Source: Pseudogymnoascus verrucosus (Eukaryota). From it: DNA of 64,000 bases. Position numbers and translations under genes: made by a program. Below are positions 34,401 to 50,586 of the stretch, one piece after another (within the stretch, counting starts at the first letter, position 1; every line of letters starts with the position of its first letter). The notes below the pieces were generated by a model. It was not told the origin of the DNA and searched no databases. It saw nothing but the letters and a program-made list of their open reading frames with translations. The DNA is taken from NCBI GenBank assembly GCA_001662655.1, contig KV460213.1; one strand, given 5' to 3'.

Positions 34401-36289
34401 TTACATCAGCAGTGCCAACACACCCACAACAGCCGCCGCAAAGACGCTACCACCGACGCGTCCACCACCTCCAACGAACGGAGTCTGGGGGATCGTCGGG
34501 CTTCCAGTGCCAACGGCCTTGATGCCGCCAGTCGGGATAGCGGTCTGGAGGGTAGTCTCCTCGTCACAGATAGTGGTGTAAATCGCCTTCGTTTCCGTAA
34601 CGACGCTGGTGGTCTTCTCGTTGGCGGGGCAGTTTGTCACACTAGGCGGGCAAGCGGTGATGGTGTGGATGATGGTGGTGTAGACGGTGCTGGGCTTCCC
34701 GGACTTGGTTGGCTTGGCGGCGCTGGTGGTGGTTGGGGCCGGGGTGATGGTGGGGTTGCCGGGGCACCAGGTGGTGTAGTCGGTGAGGGTGGCGGTGGTG
34801 ACGTGGCCGAGGGGGCAGTTGGTCACGGTGGGGGCACAGCTGGTCACGGTGTAGACGGTGGTGCGGAGGATGGTGGAGGTGAGGGTTGGGGAGTCACTGA
34901 TGGTGTTGTTGCCCCAGTGGCCGGTCGAGGTGGTCACGGCGGTGGTGGATGGGCCGGTGGTGAGTGGGCCAGGGGTGGAGGTGGTGACGGGAGCCTTGGT
35001 GCTCGAGCTGACAGTGGAAGTGGTGACGGGAGCCTTGGTGCTCGAGCTGACAGTGGAAGTGGGCGCTGCGCATCCCTTGGCCTCGCGGGCAACCAGGAGG
35101 TTCTTGATCTGAGCCAGGAAATTAACGCCGTTCTGGTCCTTGTTTTTGCCGGCAAAGACGGCGTCCCAGATCATGAACCCGCCAAAGTTATCGTGGCAGT
35201 AGTACTCGTCGATCAGCGGCTTAAGCTGATCCGCCGACAGGTAGTATTCAATAGGAATGGTTGGGTCCATGTTCGGCGCTCCCAAAACACCAATGGAAAG
35301 TTTGGCGTTCTTGCTCTTGGAGCCAGGGGCCTGGAGGCGCTTCAACCACGCATCGTAGGAGAAGCCGCCGTGGGGGTACTCTTTGGGGACAGTAGTCTCG
35401 ACACCAGTTGTCGCGTAGTCAGGGTTAAGTTTAACCCAGTCTCTAGCAGCGCAACCATCAGTGTTGTAGAATTGAACCCAGATGATGTCGAATTGGGCGC
35501 CCTGGATCATCAAATCCATGTTCGCATCGTTGACAACGCACTGAGGTGCACCGGTGATGAGGTAGCCGCCATCAGGGAAGTAGCTACGGAGCCTGTTGAT
35601 CATGGCGATATATCCAACGGAGTTGTCTAAAGAATTTAGCGACACACACTCTGCATTTAGAAACACGAATCTTACCGGTGTCTGGGTGCTCGATATCAAA
35701 GTCAAATCCATCGACGATTGTCGCGATGCCCTCGCCCTCAGTACCTGGGAGGGGATCGAAGGGGCGGGGGCCAACCCACTCCACGGTGGGGGGGCCGTAG
35801 GCTGCCCATAAGAAATCGGCGAAGGCCTCTCCGTCCTTCTTGCCAGTTAGGGAGTAGGTGTTAGGTCCGCCACCGAGGGACAGAAGAATCTTCTTTCCCT
35901 TAGACTGACAGTACTGGATGTCCTGTGCCATGCCCGTGCAGTGGTCAAGGAGGCGGTTGTGGAGAGGATCGTCAACGCCGTTGTAGCCGGGGGCGGTGTA
36001 TGTCGAGGCCCAGCATGAACTGCCATAGTTGGAACCTGGCCATCCGTTCCCCTGCGCCGGGAAATAGTCGATGAAGCCGACGGGAATGTAATCCGTATCA
36101 GCTGTGTCACAGTAGTCGCGAAGAGTTCCGCCAGTTTGGCCCTGTTCTATCATCAGCATCTCCGCTTCAGTGCCGTTCCGTCAATAAACCTACCCAGTAT
36201 GTGGCCACGGCGCTTCTTGCAGAGGAGCCGGCGGCGCTCGCCACGGCTGAGAGGGCGGCAACGGCCGCAAAGGTCTTGGAGATACCCAT
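34401..36289 (-). CDS. GH18 class III (subgroup B) chitinase, S/T-rich, probably GPI-anchored, 3 exons (36289-36194, 36141-35676, 35626-34401)
   Basis: Signal peptide, ATYWGQ, KILLSLGG, catalytic VDGFDFDIEH, ITGAPQC, WVQFYN, FGGFMIWDA. Two TVTSCAPTVTNCP-type repeats and a hydrophobic C-terminus. Confidence 0.95.
34983..35061. repeat. 36-bp perfect tandem duplication in the chitinase stalk (TSTVSSSTKAPV x2)
   Basis: GTGACGGGAGCCTTGGTGCTCGAGCTGACAGTGGAAGTG occurs twice with a period of 36. Confidence 0.9.
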
Positions 36290-37878
36290 TATAAATATAT
36301 GAAGCAGCGAGGGGGTTTAAAGATTGTGATATGGCCTAGGCCGGTGCAAAAGAGCGTGGTGTTGATTTGACTTTCAACGAAAGGACGCAAACAAAAGTCT
36401 GCAACGAGGTATATCGACGATACCGCGTGGGAATAGGGACGACGTGAAGGAAGTGGGTGAGGTGAGAAAAGAGAGAGAAAGAGGGAAGAAGGAGAGATAA
36501 AAGGAAAAGGCAACAAGATAAGATGAGATGAGGATCGTGACCAAACCTACATGGGGGGCCCCGCAGGCGAGGGTGACGAAACGGTGGAGGCATGGGGCTG
36601 GTTCATGGAGGCGCCGGTGATAGTGAACGGATGTTGGTTCCGGGAATAGTGGCGGGGTGTTGGATAGGTGGGTGATATGACCAAAGCGGTTACCTTTAAT
36701 GATGCAGGTACAAGTTTATAACAGCCGGTGGAGCTGAATGCAGGGCAGATGCAGGGCTGAAGTGGAAGGACGAGGGATTGAGAGGAAGAGGAAGAGGAAG
36801 AGGACGATGAAAAGAAAGGCAGAGTACATTTGCCAGAGTGAGAAGACTGAGCAACGATGAAGTACTCTTGGAGTCGTCGAGCACCAACATGCGCCTTGTG
36901 CAGTATAGTGGAGTGTAGTGGGGGATCAACAGGGACATCAAGCAGGGATCTGAGGGGGGGACAGATGGCATGAGCTTGGACATCTCTGGAAGTAGTAGAG
37001 CCGAAGACAATCTCCCGCAGGATTGACGGTGATGATGGAAGGAAAGTGGAAGGAGGGGTCGAGAGTACAGGTAGACGAGGGCAGGAACGGGCAAGAGAAG
37101 GCGAAGAAGAGTAAGAATAGGTAATATTAGAAGTATACAATACAGATGAGGATGAGGATGAGGATGGGGCCAAGGATGCCCAAGGCGGTAAAATGGGAAG
37201 AGGGAGGAAGGAGGAAGTGAGAAAAATGAGCATAGTGGGAGAGATGGGGTAGGTAGGGATAGAGAGGAAGGAGGAAGGGAAGATGGGGGGACAAGGGAAA
37301 GTAGGAAGGATGGATGAGTCCAGGATGAGGAAGAGGGGCAAGATCTAGACGAGGTGAGCACTAGACCCGTCATGGATTAGCCAAGAGCCCTGGCAGTGCC
37401 AATCACGGGGTAAAGAGAGCGAGGATGAGGGTCGATGAGGGATGATGAGGGTCAATCACAGCCATGGCACGTGGGTTGTGGTGAGGATTGGTGGGAATTG
37501 GTGGATATTCCTGGGAATACAAGTATCTTTAGCGCTTGATCCGTGCAGAACAAGACTTTTGCCATCCCGTTATCCCCATCCACCCTCATCCACCCCCCCA
37601 TCCTTCGCGTGGTTGTCCTGTCGTCGTCGTGCCTGGCTGTGCCTGACTGTGCCTGACTAGTCCTCTTAGGTGTCAAAATGGTGCCAGAACGATGACCGCG
37701 ACAGGGACCTATGACCACTACAGGGACTATGAGCCACGCTAATGCAGGTCGGCGGCGAGGTATTGATTTTCAATATTACCCACCAACCAACCACATGAGC
37801 CACTCGCATCTACCCATACACGACAACCCCCAAGAAGTGAAGGTATCGTCAAGTCAGTCCAGCCAAGTCAGACCCTAG

Positions 37879-37927
37879 AGGTGTGGTGTGTGGTGTGGTG
37901 TGTGGTGTGTGGTGTGGTGTGGTGTGG
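37879..37927 (+). repeat. (GTGTG)n-type microsatellite
   Basis: GGTGTGGTGTGTGGTGTGGTGTGTGGTGTGTGGTGTGGTGTGGTGTGG. Confidence 0.9.
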
Positions 37928-38539
37928 CCCGCACGCACACCACACAGACAACGGACGCGGGGGCGCCGGCTGGGCTGTGGAAGGAAGGCAACGTCGCACG
38001 CACTTTCCCAGTCAGGAGGCGGCACAGCAATGAAAGTACTCCACAGCAATTGGATGCGATGACGACGACATTGCGGTGTGTTAGAGAGTGGAGACCGAAG
38101 AAATCCTAATAGATGCGATGGGCCAATCAGGGGTGGTAGAGACGGTGACCCTGGGGGTTTGGGGAATGGACGGACGTGCAAGGGGAACACGTTCTGGGCG
38201 TGCTGGTGCCTGGGGACGATGATGGTTTGAGCCTCCGCGGAGGAGGCGAGTGCTGTGCCGCTGAACGGGTGGTGGGGATGGATGGCGCGTAGAAGGCTGG
38301 TGGTGTGGTGGGTGTTGACTTGTGTGGGCTGATGATCAAGCAGGTACAGGATATTTAATGAGCTGGTATGGTATGGTATGCTTTACTTCATCAGCCAAGA
38401 CAGTCGCAAGGTATTTTACTTATTTCATTCAGCATGAGGCTACCAAGGAATACAGGTGCGTATAGAACGGCTCAGTTGGGAGGATTCCAGGAGAGATGGC
38501 CAGGGGAAATACCCAGTAGTCTCAAGCATAGAAGACAGC

Positions 38540-42779: not shown

Positions 42780-43568
42780 TCATCGATTTGGAGGCGCATC
42801 TGGTGGCAAGGGGATATTAGGCCTTGGAGTTGGAAGTGCGTCCTCCGGTTTGAAACCAGAGAGACCATGGTTTGGAGGCGCATCCGGTGGCAGTGGGATA
42901 CTGGGCCTTGGAGTTGGAATCGCATCTTCCGGGTTGAAACTTGAAAGGCCCTGGTTCGGAGGCGCGTCTGGAGGCAGAGGGATATTCGGCCTTGGATTTG
43001 GAAGCACATCCTCCTGGTTGAAGCCAGAAAGACGTTCATATGGCGGGGTCGGCACAAATGGTCTTGGAGGGGGAATGGCATCCTCCATTCCCAAACCAGA
43101 AAGACACTTCCTTGGAGGCCTACCAGGCACATTCGGTCTTGGAGGCGGAATAGCATCTACTATTTCCACACTAGAAAGGCACTTCCTCGGTGGCCTATCC
43201 GGCACATTCGGCCTTGGTGGTGGAATAGCATCCTCCTCCGGTGCCGAACCAGGAGGGAAGATATTGGCAACTAACTCTTTCACATACTCCATGTCAACAT
43301 CCTTCTTCACCACGACGTCGTACTCTGGCTTTATCCAACCCTTGTTCTGTGTGACCTCGACCTCTGGTTCAGGAGCGGTCATGAACTGAGTTTCTCCGAT
43401 CTGTCGCGCGTAGGGGTGGCTGTCTGTGCCGAAGGTTGGGGGGATGGGGTAGGGTTTGCCGGGGGAGCTGAGGTCGAGGTTCGAAGGGGTGCAGGCGTTT
43501 GCTCGGGTCCACTGGGCGGCGGTGGCTTTGCAAGCGGAACAGTGGGTTTGGGGGGTTAGTTGGGACAT
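42780..43568 (-). CDS. Orphan proline-rich repeat protein (262 aa) with six 24-28-aa repeats
   Basis: Open frame from ATG 43568 (CAAGATG context). Repeat core EDA(I/L)P(P/T)PRP; unit lengths are all whole codons. Confidence 0.65.
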   Translation of the reverse strand: MSQLTPQTHCSACKATAAQWTRANACTPSNLDLSSPGKPYPIPPTFGTDSHPYARQIGETQFMTAPEPEVEVTQNKGWIKPEYDVVVKKDVDMEYVKELVANIFPPGSAPEEDAIPPPRPNVPDRPPRKCLSSVEIVDAIPPPRPNVPGRPPRKCLSGLGMEDAIPPPRPFVPTPPYERLSGFNQEDVLPNPRPNIPLPPDAPPNQGLSSFNPEDAIPTPRPSIPLPPDAPPNHGLSGFKPEDALPTPRPNIPLPPDAPPNR

Positions 43569-44042
43569 CTTGGGCGGGGGTTTGTGTTGTAGTTTGTTGT
43601 GAGATGGTGGGTGTAAACGAAAGATGTAAAGCTCACAGAGGAGAAAAAGAGGCAGTTTATATGCTAGGTTTTGAGGGTGAATGAGCGAGGTGGTTGTGAG
43701 ACAGGCCATCCACTGGTTCCATTTGCAGTATCACTGTAGCTGAATCTCAGACAGCTATTGGATTCAGGGGTGTCTGCACGATAAATATTCACATTTCGCA
43801 ACAAGTAAATGAGAGAAAGGTTTATCCAAAATAGATTCATCACCTATTCTGGTCATATTTGAATACATATAAAGGTAAAAGGAACGCAGAATAACACCTA
43901 GCCCGTTTGGTTTTGAACCTTGAAAATCATCGCAGTAACTGGGTATAAAACACTTTCCTGGCTTCCCGTAATCCACTCACTTGTTCAAACTCCGTGCCCG
44001 ACCCGACCTCAACAGAAAGAAAGAGAGAAACCCACACCAGTA

Positions 44043-46634
44043 TCAATGTTTCTCAACAGTAGCACTCTCACCGTCCGAATCCGGAACCTCAAAGTAACAC
44101 TCGAAATTCTGATGATGGGCACAACAAGTCCCTTCCGGCGCCCAATCATCTTCAAACACTCCAGAGTCGCTACTCTGAATTCCACCAGAGACATCGTTAT
44201 CCTCAGACGAGTTTTGGGTAAGAAATGGGCCAGCCATCCTTGTTTCCAGACTCCTGCTCAAGGCATCCATGGCTTCCAAAGAAGATTTGTTATCACAAGG
44301 CCACTTCTGCGGTGGACCATGTTCCTCGAGACTATCGTTTGACAAGCCATTTTCGAAAGGGTCAATTGCACCACTTCCAATCATAGTCTCATCGTAATTG
44401 AAGTTATACCCCTGAATATTCTGATACTGAAGATCCGGGAACAATTCGAAAAGCTCCCCATATTCGGCCATCTCGTCAAGAATGTCCAATTCCATGGGCT
44501 GATCTTCCGAAAGCGGGTCTTGGTTCGCGATGGGGGTGCTCGCCACCTCTTCTTTAAGTGTGGTATGAAGAATGGACTTTGGATTTTGGAAGGAATTTTG
44601 GCCGCCCTGGTTAGCAATTGAACCTTCTCCATCCTTTTTATGACCGGCGTGTTGATCTGGGACATCCAACACGGAACGTATCGACTCACTTGAGTTTTCA
44701 TGCCCAGGGTTGGTATCAATAGCTTCATTTGCTAACGTGAGGGCTCGAACAAAAGCATCCTGATCAAAACCGTTCATCCCACTAGAATGACCCAAGTCAA
44801 TTCCCAACTTCGCTTGTTCCGTCAGCACTGATCCCCTCACAAAAGGGTCTGGTATGGTTGACTGTCCTCTGTGCACAACTCCATCATGCGCCGCTACCTC
44901 CGGTGTTGGTGGCAGAGTAACCGGAAACTGTGGATTTTCAATTGTCAGCGGGGATACGTCTTGACCGCTTTGCATACCTGAATAGGCAAAGGGATGTAGA
45001 AAATCCTGAGGAGCGATTCGTGGGGTCAGAGGAGGTTGAGAGAGGGTCATGATGCTGGAATCTGGAGGTGATGCTTGGTTTGTGTCCATTCCCAGTAGGG
45101 CTGGGTCAATATTCTCATAGCCCGCGACTGGAATAACAGACTGCGGGGGTTCTTGGGTAAGAATCTGAGGGTGCCCATAGAAGGCTTGTGTCATGTTATG
45201 GCCTGGCATAGCCTGATATGAGAACTGCCCTGCTTGTGACGAGCTGCCGTAGCTTCCCTGGACAGGGGGGCCGGGAGTTTGTTGGTAGCCCCCGAAACTA
45301 AATTGAGGTTGTTCCGATACCCTCCGTTGCCCCCCAAAGGTAAAATCATGGACCCAATTTTGCTGATTGAACTGACCAGGTATGTTCTGTTGAACGGTTG
45401 AACTTGGGTACTCTCCACCATATCCCTGTAAATTCTGTGGCTCAAAGCGCTGTTGTGCCATCGGGTTCTGCAGTTGACTATCTTGGGGCATGTGTGGATA
45501 CTGAAATCTCATATCATGCTGCTGTGATGGCTGTAAGAGTCCTGGTTGAGACCGGCGCTGGAGAGCATGCAGTTGTGTCTGGGATGGTGCCGCAGATGAT
45601 ATCCCCTGTGGGTATCCAGAATTCAACAACGACGATTCAAAATCCCCTTGCACTCCATGATATGCTACTTGAATTCCCGCCCGGTTGATATACTCATATT
45701 CGGGATCGTGACGAGGCAAGCGTGAATTTGTGTCGGATGAGGACTGATGGGCGTTGTGCTGAGACCCATGAGCTTTGGAGTCCGTTGGAGGCAGCTCGAA
45801 AATGAGTGACCCTGCCTTGACATTTCCTGGGGCAGCTTGGCTTGTGCTTGCGCCGGCTGTTGAAGGCCCGGAATGGCCGTAGTTTGAGTTGTCAAAGGCA
45901 GTGGGGCTATGTGACAGTCAGACACCACACTCAAACATATGGGGGGAGGGCTAACCGTTGATTAACTTCCATCCAAAACCTAGCCATGATGTAATAAATA
46001 TCATCCACCGTAATTCCATTCTCATTTGCAGTCTTGAAAATCTCTCCAGGTGATACCCCGTCCTTAATAAGACAGAGGACCGGTTCAACGAGGGGATTTT
46101 CTCGAGTATAGCCAGAGAATCTAGCATTCCCACATTAGTAAATGACCTGGTCGAAGAATAATAATCGCATCACTTGCCTGTTTTGAAGCTTCCTGTACTT
46201 CGTTATGACAAAATCGATGCACCGGGCCGTTGGCTTGATATGCGGGACCCAGATATGAGTTGGGAAATGGTGCATCACATCAGCCACGACCTGGCCGTTG
46301 TAGACGCCAGCATCATAGCGACCAAGGACGAATCCTATCTTCCCAGGGGTTTCCTCCCAGTACTTCTCCTGAGAGTACCTATCAAATAGACTGTCAGTAT
46401 CCATCAACTCAGGGATCAGAATAAGCATCGCCAAGAAACAGAAACCAGAACCTACTCTTCCTGCTTCATAAACCCCGTCCTGCAGTACTTGATACTGCTT
46501 GCCCCTCTAACATGCCTCGCATTCCTGAATATCCCACAGAATTTCTCATATATCTCATCGTCTTTCAGCCCTTGTTTGACCATCGTAATCACCCAAAGGA
46601 TCTCCTCCATCGACCACTTCTGAGTGCCAACCAT
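44043..46634 (-). CDS. Orphan 802-aa putative transcription regulator: three exon-encoded Myb/HTH-like modules plus Q/P-rich and acidic tail
   Basis: Exons 46634-46456, 46378-46178, 46120-45956 and 45906-44043 join in frame (2409 nt). Introns are 77 nt (GT-AG), 57 nt (GC-AG) and 49 nt (GT-AG). Confidence 0.75.
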
Positions 46635-47717
46635 CTTTGAATAACAGTACCGGAACTGCCCTGGTGGTTTGGCTCGCTTGGGTGATTCTTTCAATATCTT
46701 TCTCGGACAGAATAGAAGCAGACTGTGACGGTTTGAATGAAAAATGCGTTGAAGCAAGCGCTTTCGCGAAAATAATAATGAATGTGGTGAAGGATATCAC
46801 GACCCAGCGTGAATCTGCAATGATAATGAATGAATAAATATGTGACAGTCGAAATCCAAATGCGCCCGTGATAGTGGTCGTGATATGAATGATTTGCAAT
46901 ATCAGCTTGAATGATGGGACCAGCCCGGATGGATGAATACTCGGTGGAAGAATAGAAGCCGAATATAAGTTGAGGCAGAGTGTTGAAAGAAAGAAAAGAA
47001 GGAGAAGAAGCAAAGCCGAAATTTAGATCAATATAACGAGGCCGAGGGGTGAGTGAATCACCTGTGCCGGCGCGGCTTTGGCGACTCTGCCGCTTCACGG
47101 CGGATTGTAAGGGCTGTGGGAGTAACAACGGTGTTCAAGAAAGGGCCGTATTGAAAATAACGATGCGTGACCGAGAAACACGGAAATGAAGTTGATCGTA
47201 CCATATTGACAAAGTAGCAGAGAATACAAAGTGACGACGAGCATATCATAGCGACACAGGAAGGGGAACGTGAAATGTATGAAGCTATTCACGAAACGCA
47301 TCTTCACCCGCTCTGGCTCAAAAACATAAAATAGGGGTAATACAATTTTTTGCAGACAATAGCATCACACTACTGGCATCTGCAGGATCCAACGAGAAGG
47401 CAGATCATTAGCTCCAAATCCGCGTGACTCGAAGGTCTTGAGGAATATTCGATTTCGTTATTTTTATATATATACGATCATAATCTTATACCACAGGCGT
47501 TGATCATAAGGCAAAAACAAAAATAACCAACACCGCGCTTCCCACACAAATAATTCAAAAAAAAGAAGATGAATCGCGTCAACACACAAACACGCACGCC
47601 CGCTCGCCGAGAAAATGTAACCCCCACCCCCTTCTCCCAAGTCCTACAACCCCCATCTGCCTCCACCCCCAAAAGCAAAACTCCCATTTAAACCCCGCCC
47701 CTCCTTAAACATCCCCA

Positions 47718-50586
47718 TTACTCCACCGCCCCAAAGAACCGACTCGCCTCCTCAATCTTCGCATCCCCATTCGCAAAGTCCCACCCGATAATAATCGGCG
47801 TCTGGCTACAACAGATAATCCTCCTCGCATCAAACTGCAGCTTAAACACCCTCGCCATGTTCGCCCCCGGGGTTGCAGGAGCCGCAGCCGCGGCCTGCTG
47901 AGCATGGGCTTGGGCTTGCGTCTGCGCCTGCGCGTGGAGGAGTGCTTGGGCCTGGGCTCGTGCGGTGGCTTGGGCCTGTGCGACTGCCTGGATGGTGGCT
48001 TGCGTATCTAGTGGCGGTGCCGACGATGCTTGAGGCTGCGGGATTGGTGGTGGTGGTGGTGGTGCGGATTGTGTGTGCTGAATTGGGGATTCACTGTTTG
48101 TTTGCGGGATGCTAGTTGATTGTTGCTCAGCCATAATTTGCGACTGCGCTACCGACGATTGCGGCCGCGCCGAATCTTCAGGCGCGTCTTGTGCAGGTGC
48201 CATCCCACGAGTTGCAAGGCCGTGGTTATCCGATGAAGGTAAACCCGTATTCCGGTGCATCGCATGATCGACGACCGCACGTAACTGCTGTCGTCGGGCT
48301 TCGAGTGGCTCAGCCATGATGGCCGATCCTAGGCGGCTGTACCATATGATTTGCGGGTGTTCATGGATGACCAGGCGGAGCACATTGGCGCCGAGGGGAA
48401 CGACGAGGTCGATCAGCGAGTGGAAATACGCGGCGCTCTGTGCTGGAAGGCTTGGTGGTGGGGGACGGTTTCCCTCAAAATTGGTCAGGGCGGATCGGGC
48501 GGCGTCGACTTGGCGGAAGGTGTGCTTTGCTTTCCAAACACCTTCCTTGTCTCGGCGCCAAATGATGATGCTCTCGTCGTAAGATCCAGAAACTATGCGG
48601 CCGTATCTACCGCCCCCTCCGCCGGGAGGTAGCTTGGCTCCGTATGCCATGATATCTTCGGGCCTGCTCGATCCCGCGTTTCGATTTCGTGTCTTGGGTA
48701 GGTTACGGGGAATGACACCGCTATCGACAGCCTTGAAATAGTCATTGTCTACATTCTTGGCTGCAGCTTGGTCGTCTTCTTCACTCCCCGGCAAGTCTCC
48801 AAACCCGGCTTGCACAGTTCGAACAAGATGGGTGTGCCCCCTTAGGCTTGCAACCTCAAGGCCCGTCTGTTTGTCAAACACCTTGACTTCATGATCGCTG
48901 CTGCCGCTCACGATGCGACGGCCGTCGTATTGCACACAAGCAATGCCCTTTTGATGTCCAACTAGCGTACGAATGCAAGTCTGAAGCGGCCAATCCCAGA
49001 CCTTGACGTTGCGGTCACCAGATGCCGAGACTATCTCGTTCTTATATATTTGAATGGCGTTGACGGCAGCACCATGGCCTTCAAGACACCCAATCTGGGT
49101 AAAAGGAGGCAGTATAGGAAGGGTTTCACGCGGCGAAGGATTATAGCCGTAATTATTTAATACTATAACCGCAGGTTGAATACCCTCATTCGCGCCAGGG
49201 TATCCCAGCTCGCCAGGGTGCATCGGTCTGCGGTTAAATATTTTGATGGTCTTGTCCTTGGAGCATGTGGCGAGTATTCGACGGTCAAACCGGACGTTTA
49301 GAACTGGCTCTGGGTGTGCCTTCTCCAAAACTTGAAGCATTCTGCCCGTAGAGAATTGCCATACCCTCACTGTCGAATCGCTACTCCCTGAAACGATAAT
49401 ATCTTCAGATGGATCAGGATCGAATTGCAAGCAGAGGACCGAGCCTTGATGACCTTGGAGAGGAGGCATAACAAGTCTTTTCGTGTCTAAATTCCAAATC
49501 CGAAGGGTTCTGTCCCTGCTTCCGCTCACGAGATATTTGCCGCTGTGTTGGATGGTATAAATACACTCTTTGTGTGCCTCGTGAGGGTAGTCAGGGTGTG
49601 GCAGTTGAAAGTTGACATATTTTTCAGCTTCCCAATTGGCCTCTAGTCTTCTCCGTTGAGCGTAAAGATAGTGCCAGTTGAGTTTTCGTTTGTTCTCCCG
49701 TCGGTCTAACACCACCAGAGACGACATGCTTGGAAGATCCGAGGGTGCAGCCTTCGTCGACCGGTTTGACGGCCGCCGCATTATAGGTTGTGGTGCCAAA
49801 CTTTCCCGTGGAGGTGCCCTGCGTGCAGTAGCTGGATGTTCTGAGGCATAAGCCCCTTCTGGGGCCAAGTTTCGTGATACCTGTGGCGCTGGGCTCCCAA
49901 ATATCGACTTGTGCTCAGGAGGAGATCTTGGACTAACGTCGGCCATTTCTAAATCATCGTCCTGGTCCTTAACATAAAACTCTGGCCTGTTGTTATTCTC
50001 CGTAAGCTTTAATTGTTTCCGTGGCGGCACTCGGTCATGGGACGGAGACTGTTTGCGCACCACCCCTCCCTGTGATCGGAATCCCGATCGGGACTCGAGC
50101 GATTCGTTTATCAGCTCTTTCTCAAAGCTCTTAAGCTCGATTTGGTTGGTACGCCAGCCCTCCCTGTAGTATAGTTGTTGCCATAGAGTCCAGTCCATGG
50201 ACAGTGGCAAGGAACCACGCGACGTTAGAGCCATCTGCAGCACTGACAACGGATCGAGGAATCCCAGAATTTTCAAGCACACTTCGGGGGGGAGTCTGTC
50301 CAAAAAATTGACGTGTAACAAAGGGCCCATGGCATTAACTATATCGTATACGGCGGATGTTGGGAGGTCGCCCATAATGGTCATGGCAAGGCCTAGAGGG
50401 ACACGGGTCAGTGAGGCAGTGAATAACAGACGTGTGGGATCTCGTACTGATGCGGTCATCGACGTCCAACGAGGAATACCACGAGGCTACGGTTGGATCC
50501 ATGCGCCCCGAGCTTCTCGCCGCCACCTGCGTGCCCAGAGGAGCCTCGCTATAGCCCTCATCTTGAGGGGCATTGAATAGAGTCAT
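47718..50586 (-). CDS. fwd-1: F-box/WD40 SCF substrate receptor, FWD-1/Pof11/beta-TrCP-like, 2 exons
   Basis: F-box LPPEVCLKILGFLDP. WD40 repeats (HKECIY..VSGSRDRTLRIWN, GHQGSVLCLQF, GHGAAVNAIQ, GHQKGIACVQYDGRRIVSGSSD). C-terminal RVFKLQFDARRIICCSQ...GWDF. Intron at about 50447-50393. Confidence 0.88.

Follow-up and report, generated by a model that had tools for sequence, protein, structure and literature searches.

A four-exon, single-copy gene of Pseudogymnoascus with a probable GC-AG intron and three predicted helix-turn-helix-like modules

Introduction

Myb/SANT repeats, such as those of c-Myb (R1-R3), TRF1/TRF2, Zeste and Reb1, are tandem three-helix units of about 50 residues, and each Myb repeat carries three regularly spaced aromatic core residues. 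Simple tri-helical helix-turn-helix (HTH) domains, among them the N-domain of the phage G20c small terminase, the DNA-binding domain of GcrA, and the HTH domains of resolvase, Tc3/Mos1 and LuxR/GerE, are the best structural matches to the protein described here, and fungal Clr5 proteins (PF14420) likewise have a small helical N-terminal unit in regulators of fungi. The gene analyzed in this work lies on the minus strand (46634..44043) of a stretch of 64,000 nt from contig KV460213.1 of Pseudogymnoascus verrucosus (assembly GCA_001662655.1), hereafter the window. Each of its first three exons encodes a predicted three-helix unit (modules 1, 2 and 3, together residues 1-182), and the fourth encodes a long tail (residues 183-802). 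Pseudogymnoascus is a cold-adapted genus that includes the bat white-nose pathogen and has few studied regulators. From sequence and comparison with relatives, the locus is a real, single-copy, protein-coding gene of four exons; that its product is a lineage-specific nuclear regulator, with a DNA-binding triple HTH head and an activation tail, we regard as an even bet.

Compared with the Myb/SANT repeats, the modules share the tandem arrangement of units of this size and an aromatic residue directly before helix 1 (W7, W67 and Y131), with more aromatics in helices 2 and 3. By reading, the series run W7/Y29/Y50 in module 1, W67 and then F116 or Y121 in module 2, and Y131/F155/Y169-170 in module 3, a spacing that is roughly Myb-like at most. 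Unlike those repeats, the modules match no Pfam Myb-type model (PF00249 and related) at E≤10 in the 14 sequences scanned (4 window exons, 4 full orthologs and 6 distant or fragmentary relatives), their loops between helices 2 and 3 are 9, 14 and 3 residues long, their charge is nearly neutral, and they are predicted to pack as one body. With the simple HTH domains they share a turn that contains glycine between the first two helices, but there is no sequence relation, and the gene is eukaryotic, is divided into several exons and encodes a probably disordered tail of 620 aa. A preliminary description of the window had also likened the modules to Clr5; the residue patterns are presumably similar, but the likeness did not carry over to the Pfam model PF14420, which matched none of the 14 sequences at E≤10.

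Gene structure and distribution

Four exons (46634-46456, 46378-46178, 46120-45956 and 45906-44043) join into a single frame of 2409 nt that encodes 802 aa and has its sole stop at the end, exactly to the base as the preliminary description had spliced it from separate open reading frame (ORF) fragments. The model is based on the sequence and on comparison with relatives, with splicing read from the DNA. The corresponding stop-to-stop frames on the minus strand are 46452..46796, 46135..46506, 45931..46134 and 44043..45917, in a window with a base composition of about 50% GC. The last has 624 codons, and by our own arithmetic such a frame would stay open by chance with a probability of (61/64)^624, or about 1e-13, which is far beyond chance. 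The exon sizes are 179, 201, 165 and 1864 nt; therefore introns 1, 2 and 3 are all in phase 2, as first proposed, and the lengths of exons 2 and 3 are divisible by three. We estimate the chance of one common phase for three introns at about 0.1, so this agreement is not evidence alone.

Exon 1 (46456..46634), with the ATG at 46634, encodes module 1 (residues 1-60), and its opening MVGTQKW is found in 16 of the 17 deposited ortholog models. Its open frame ends at a TAG within the donor of intron 1 (46379..46455; 77 nt; GTAGGT...CTGAC...GATAG). Exon 2 (46178..46378) encodes module 2 (residues 61-127) and is followed by intron 2 (46121..46177; 57 nt; CAG/GCAAGT...TACTAAT...GCTAG), which reads as a GC-AG intron. 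Exon 3 (45956..46120) encodes module 3 (residues 128-182), and intron 3 (45907..45955; 49 nt; GTTAGC...CTGAC...CATAG) separates it from exon 4 (44043..45906; residues 183-802), which includes the TGA stop at 44043-44045. All three introns contain a CTGAC or TACTAAT resembling a branch site and finish in YAG.

Comparison with relatives bears on each junction. Junctions 1, 2 and 3 are common to 16, 5 and 15 of the 17 deposited ortholog models, respectively. In P0030, the most distant relative (133 aa, 34% identity), modules 1 and 2 lie in one open frame that is collinear over junction 1 and has no insert; junction 1 is therefore supported, and intron 1 seems to be absent from P0030, so that intron presence would appear to vary within the gene family. 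Moreover, a DNA contig of a relative spans 43816-46380 with 192 substitutions and is continuous through introns 2 and 3. Its 7 indels all fall in exon 4 and all preserve the frame (+3, +6, -3, +3, +12, and a -1 paired with a +1 at a distance of four bases).

A search with the exon 4 product returned 23 proteins at E≤0.001, comprising 17 named NCBI proteins and 6 fragments. All 17 are entered as “hypothetical protein” of Pseudogymnoascus, each from a differently named strain or species, and none of these deposited orthologs carries a functional annotation. Hence, the gene is not hidden, as the preliminary description had called it, since it has annotated orthologs in 17 named Pseudogymnoascus genomes; what does stand is that the exact 802-aa reading differs from the closest deposited model. 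That model, V499_02110 (787 aa), comes from the closest named relative, Pseudogymnoascus sp. VKM F-103, and departs from ours in 3 substitutions and a 15-residue gap at 112-126, the missing residues being due to the annotators' choice of an upstream GT donor for intron 2. The same four-exon reading as in the window is found in VF21_09242, a hypothetical protein of 803 aa. Two deposited models depart further from this structure. The P. destructans model (P0006, GMDG_05010, 740 aa), from the bat pathogen, jumps from the middle of module 2 to exon 4 (compared with window positions 45956-46230) and therefore misses the last helix of module 2 as well as the whole of module 3, which may be an annotation artefact or a real loss, and the P0013 model (1003 aa) fuses the downstream neighbor onto the gene.

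Beyond these orthologs, little was found. When proteins of comparable length were searched with residues 1-185 of P0004, an ortholog, the 17 Pseudogymnoascus proteins were the only matches, and the same was true of an 8-sequence profile among longer proteins. An exhaustive phmmer search with residues 1-189 against 1.84 billion representatives gave 10 matches at E≤0.001: 2 orthologs, 3 ORF fragments of close relatives, P0027, P0028, P0029 and P0030 (from Logan, JGI and ENA), and P0031 (E 2.9e-4), which by reading is a repetitive protein matched in 5 stretches and was rejected. No second copy and no variant with another number of modules turned up in the ortholog searches, paralogs with different module counts being what the preliminary description had proposed to look for. 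Within the 64-kb window, neither the modules nor the tail occur a second time (best other tblastn match, E 0.22). A metagenome scan with module 2 produced two loci, L001 and L002, both rejected as chance matches to the pattern GKIGFVLG; one of their contigs is AT-rich, with the locus in prokaryote-like ORFs, and the other is very rich in GC. The restriction to one lineage that had been proposed is thus borne out, and on these sequence searches the family appears confined to Pseudogymnoascus and its closest kin. We judge it to be undescribed, small and of a known module kind, the gene itself being already deposited as a hypothetical protein. Across the 14 sequences scanned, no Pfam family scored above its cut-off. 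We found no literature naming the locus tag GMDG_05010, and among the listed matches on lineage-specific transcription factors of Pseudogymnoascus, the titles and the beginnings of the abstracts do not deal with this gene.

The donor of intron 2

The GC-AG character of intron 2 had not been flagged in the preliminary description, and it is the point on which the deposited models diverge most. The relevant part of exon 2 offers three in-phase donor candidates: GTGCAT (46222), GTACAG (46198) and CAG/GCAAGT (46177). We take the last to be the nearest to the usual fungal donor consensus and the two others to be poorer. The intron has the features of the GC-AG class, with GC at positions +1/+2 in an AG/GCAAGT context, the branch site TACTAAT and a YAG acceptor. 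Five deposited models (P0004, P0005, P0012, P0014 and P0022) place junction 2 at the GC site, and the remaining 12 of the 17 adopt about five other solutions. The 15 residues upstream of the GC donor, which are predicted to form helix 3 of module 2, are kept in those five models and also in P0027 and P0028, at about 50% identity. In both of these relatives, the homologous ...QR is followed by an unconserved in-frame insert of 17 residues ending in FDR, after which module 3 resumes; the insert looks like the same intron read through. Similar readthrough products are seen as NRQVM in P0024 and NRQVK in P0015, and since these need a C at intron position +2, the GC donor is, by back-translation, conserved within the genus. 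The GC donor is preferred here because of its context, the conservation of the residues before it, the predicted helix 3 and the C at +2 in relatives.

It could instead be supposed that a model of the 787-aa type reflects the true mRNA, with intron 2 starting from the GT at 46222 or 46198 and module 2 left without its third helix, or that isoforms coexist, but we consider this improbable. Both GT sites are worse donors by that consensus, and their use would skip 15 residues that are still conserved where identity has fallen to about 50% and that form a confidently predicted helix. The disagreement among the deposited models, with about six solutions in all, would be the pattern expected of gene finders limited to GT donors. 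In favor of a GT donor, the GC site is unused in 12 of the 17 deposited models, and according to an excerpt of PMC7072748, GT-AG accounts for 98.7% of fungal introns, GC-AG being the major noncanonical class, spliced by the U2 spliceosome and making up <1% of introns. The corrected model of intron 2, read from sequence as GC-AG, is in our view the most useful concrete result of this analysis: a conserved GC-AG intron would lead automatic annotation to truncate a domain, junction 2 being the place where those 12 models differ.

Predicted fold of residues 1-182

For residues 1-189 of P0004, AlphaFold2 (20 aligned rows) gave a mean predicted local distance difference test score (pLDDT) of 87.5 and a predicted template modeling score (pTM) of 0.83. 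Modules 2 and 3 alone (P0005 residues 61-189, 18 rows) gave a pLDDT of 87.2 and a pTM of 0.84 and reproduced the same helices, which are placed at residues 9-20, 25-35 and 45-55 in module 1, at (64-67) 73-82, 87-97 and 112-124 in module 2, and at 138-146, 151-161 and 165-176 in module 3. The prediction is thus of three three-helix units, one for each of exons 1 to 3, with a turn of 4 residues between helices 1 and 2 in every module, and the introns, at codons 60, 127 and 182, fall 5, 3 and 6 residues past the respective third helix. The pTM of 0.83 hints at a single domain into which all three modules pack. It had been pointed out that exons 2 and 3 could be skipped in frame, and the arithmetic allows it, both being multiples of three; however, skipping either would be unlikely to leave a folded head if the high pTM reflects compact packing of all three modules.

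Structural comparison by VIA-align drew on a set of 48,161 chains. The first model matched 41 chains at Z≥5, none of them at Z≥8, and the rows listed, to judge by title, consist almost entirely of tri-helical HTH, Myb, SANT or homeodomain-like domains aligned to module 1. Against HTH/Myb/SANT DNA-binding domains, module 1 reached Z 5-7.3: the small terminase N-domain (4xvn_A) was best (Z 7.3, root-mean-square deviation [rmsd] 2.3 Å, 51 residues), followed by GcrA (Z 6.0), Zeste (5.8), and c-Myb R1, TRF1, TRF2 and Tc3 (5.5). Taken together, the Myb/TRF/Zeste chains matched module 1 at Z 5.0-5.8, with rmsd 2.4-3.2 Å over 48-59 residues, and modules 2 and 3 at Z 3.1-3.4. For the second model (modules 2 and 3), no chain reached Z 5, and the HTH-type matches lay at Z 3.1-4.5. 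Nevertheless, 18 of the chains that matched module 1 recur on module 2, for example 4xvn_A (Z 4.5) and Zeste and GcrA (both 3.4). On module 3 there are 5 rows, 2 of which are also in the list of the first model, namely c-Myb R1 (Z 3.1) and Tc3 (Z 3.2); in the first model, c-Myb R1 aligned to module 1 and Tc3 spanned residues 2-177. Thus, the HTH/Myb-like fold claimed for all three exons is matched at modest Z for module 1, while modules 2 and 3 reach only Z 3.1-4.5, and a fold shared by the three modules is, on these models, supported but not proven.

Whether the modules are duplicates of one another is a separate question, and in sequence only modules 1 and 3 resemble each other. BLASTP aligned 15 aa of the two at E 0.011, hhalign gave E 0.002 with a probability of 13.7%, and an ungapped, helix-anchored comparison found 8 identities in 35 positions, about 5 standard deviations above 20,000 shuffles (p<5e-5). 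Neither BLASTP nor hhalign linked module 2 to module 1 or module 3, and its helix-anchored p values were 0.10-0.14 in the comparison with module 1 and 0.012-0.035 in that with module 3; all of these anchored values are generous, as the shuffle null disregards the periodicity common to any two helices. Every module has the pattern x-G-[LV]-x in the turn that joins its first two helices (QGLK, AGVY and DGVS). The likeness of modules 1 and 3 is weak but real, and their origin by duplication is plausible. The preliminary description had gone further, describing a similar helical unit in each exon and an exon duplication behind the whole array: the unit does recur in each exon as a prediction, and modules 1 and 3 do resemble each other, but module 2 finds no support from BLASTP or hhalign. 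The peptides that it quoted from the three exons and the tail are all present.

Several weaker matches to described families and structures were set aside. DUF7270 (PF23934), for which no literature was found, matched exon 1 alone at 11.8 bits (E 0.19) against a curated cut-off of 27 bits and was absent from the full orthologs and distant relatives; His_Me_b4a2 (E 0.0024; 18.3 bits, cut-off 25) and Cdc13_OB2 (E 0.15) were also below threshold. These were taken as chance because they are scattered and differ between sequences. No match in the PDB was accepted by sequence, where a TRAPP subunit was best (E 0.034), or by profile, where a designed repeat was best (E 0.091); both were rejected. With the N-terminus as query, the ESM Atlas gave a best feature score of 0.80, below the bar of 0.9, and a structure TM of ≤0.39 by query, and its Myb-like and HTH_TIMELESS clusters (0.76-0.78) are leads only.

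Tail and proposed function

The tail takes up about 620 of the 802 residues; it is poorly conserved, of low complexity and probably disordered. The fraction of majority residues in the alignment is 0.94-0.96 at the N-terminus versus 0.5-0.86 in the tail, and the ESM Atlas returned nothing usable for a tail query. As had been described, the tail is first rich in a few residues and then acidic. Residues 183-420 (45192..45905, minus strand) form a stretch of 15% Q, 13% S, 11% G and 9% P that also contains aromatics, and residues 641-802 have a net charge of -31. Within the latter lies an acidic-hydrophobic motif (residues 655-674; 44430..44489, minus strand) that is activation-domain-like and to which a function in activation is tentatively ascribed. 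Its core, ELFELFPDL, is partly conserved, with L671, F672 and D674 (P0004 numbering) nearly invariant. A further short motif, GYENIDPALL at residues 444-453, is conserved in the tail. In composition, the tail is typical of activation regions. Close to the C-terminus, a Cys/His cluster, CC-x-HH-x4-C (residues 776-785; 44097..44126, minus strand), is conserved. Upstream of it, Cys719 is also conserved in the otherwise disordered acidic tail, and the cluster together with Cys719 could form a small metal-binding knuckle.

From these features, we infer, from sequence only, DNA binding, a nuclear location and activation, and the most likely arrangement would be as follows. Residues 1-182 would form a conserved helical domain of three tri-helical HTH units (Myb/SANT/homeodomain-like), in which modules 1 and 2, with their basic third helices (charges +2 and +3), would contact DNA, and module 3, with its acidic third helix, would pack against them as a cap. 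Recruitment of the transcription machinery would fall to the tail, through its Q-rich and acidic-hydrophobic parts. If this model is right, the genes belong to an undescribed, genus-restricted family of HTH-array regulators, and with one module per exon and a single intron phase, they offer a small, testable example of an exon-built domain array, although the finding bears on no long-standing open question, and lineage-specific hypothetical proteins that join a small folded head to a disordered tail are frequent among fungi.

A number of results weigh against a DNA-binding regulator. The domain is barely basic, with module net charges of +2, +3 and -3, and the third helix of module 3 is acidic. 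No classical nuclear localization signal is visible, as no stretch of 7 aa has at least 4 K/R, and for the 14 sequences Pfam gave no DNA-binding family at E≤10. Both folds were computed from shallow alignments (20 and 18 rows) made up mostly of close orthologs, and the five models of the first fold spread in pLDDT from 60.0 to 87.5. Moreover, the Z values for both models lie within the range that VIA-align itself calls a “common arrangement.” Prediction followed by Foldseek, the check that had been proposed, yielded the three three-helix units, but neither model matched anything in the PDB at E≤0.001.

A stronger form of the regulator model, in which the DNA-binding architecture is of recent origin and limited to Pseudogymnoascus and its nearest relatives, is rather unlikely, at something like one chance in a handful. 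It would hold that a symmetric phase-2 exon was duplicated and module 2 then diverged past recognition, giving a compact triple HTH with a fast-evolving activation tail, and, jointly, that DNA is read in a manner unlike that of Myb repeats or bipartite transposase domains. If true, the birth of a transcription factor family would be traceable here.

The alternative that survives best, and that we would rate level with this stronger form, is that the modules are SANT-like units that bind proteins or histones, so that the protein is a chromatin or coregulator adaptor whose tail scaffolds partners. The structural matches include a TRRAP lobe (9caf_A, Z 5.8), DMAP1 (4iej_A, 5.5), ISWI (1ofc_X and 2y9z_A, 5.5) and MTA1 (7ao8_D, 5.3, and 4bkx_A, 5.0), and the low net charge, the acidic third helix of module 3, the lack of a basic cluster and the compact domain hinted at by the high pTM all fit such an adaptor. 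However, equally good scores come from the DNA-bound HTH domains of Myb, TRF, Zeste and transposases, and modules 1 and 2 have basic third helices.

Somewhat less probable still is a protein unrelated to chromatin, a low-complexity scaffold, for example one that forms condensates, with a small folded head. The size of the low-complexity part suits a scaffold, as do the mean pLDDT of 0.40 in the ESM Atlas model of the whole ortholog, the middling Z values of all fold matches and the absence of a family match. What speaks against it is that the fold matches listed are mostly nucleic-acid-binding tri-helical domains and not mixed helical bundles, and that the folded head is under the strongest constraint.

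Finally, a captured Tc1/mariner- or IS-type transposase, its bipartite HTH retained and its catalytic part lost, would concern only the origin of the N-terminal array and be compatible with a DNA-binding regulator, and it is very improbable: it draws on matches to Mos1 (3hos_A, Z 5.7), Tc3 (1u78_A, 5.1, and 1tc3_C, 5.5), IstA (8b4h_A, 5.2) and SETMAR (7s03_A, 5.3), with three transposase matches spanning two modules, but the two-module alignments have rmsd 11-13 Å, Pfam finds no transposase family (HTH or DDE) in the modules or the 620-aa tail, and the gene has no other copies in the window, one copy per named strain or species, and housekeeping neighbors.

Genomic neighborhood

The neighbors are housekeeping genes and not a metabolite cluster, encoding NPR2, a lysine methyltransferase, a WD40 protein, a CDC24/RhoGEF protein and a G-patch/GCFC protein. 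The upstream neighbor (47718-50486, minus strand) is the WD40-repeat protein, which carries long runs rich in Ala, Gln and Pro toward its C-terminus, and about 1.08 kb of intergenic DNA lies between its stop and the ATG at 46634. Directly downstream (42780-43730, minus strand) is a frame of 316 codons with tandem proline-rich repeats (units like EDAIPPPRPNVP...) and no Pfam match. Elsewhere in the window, positions 1-2000 have a GC content of 0.39 versus about 0.5 in the rest, and positions 36001-38000 show a GC skew of 0.29 and an AT skew of 0.21.

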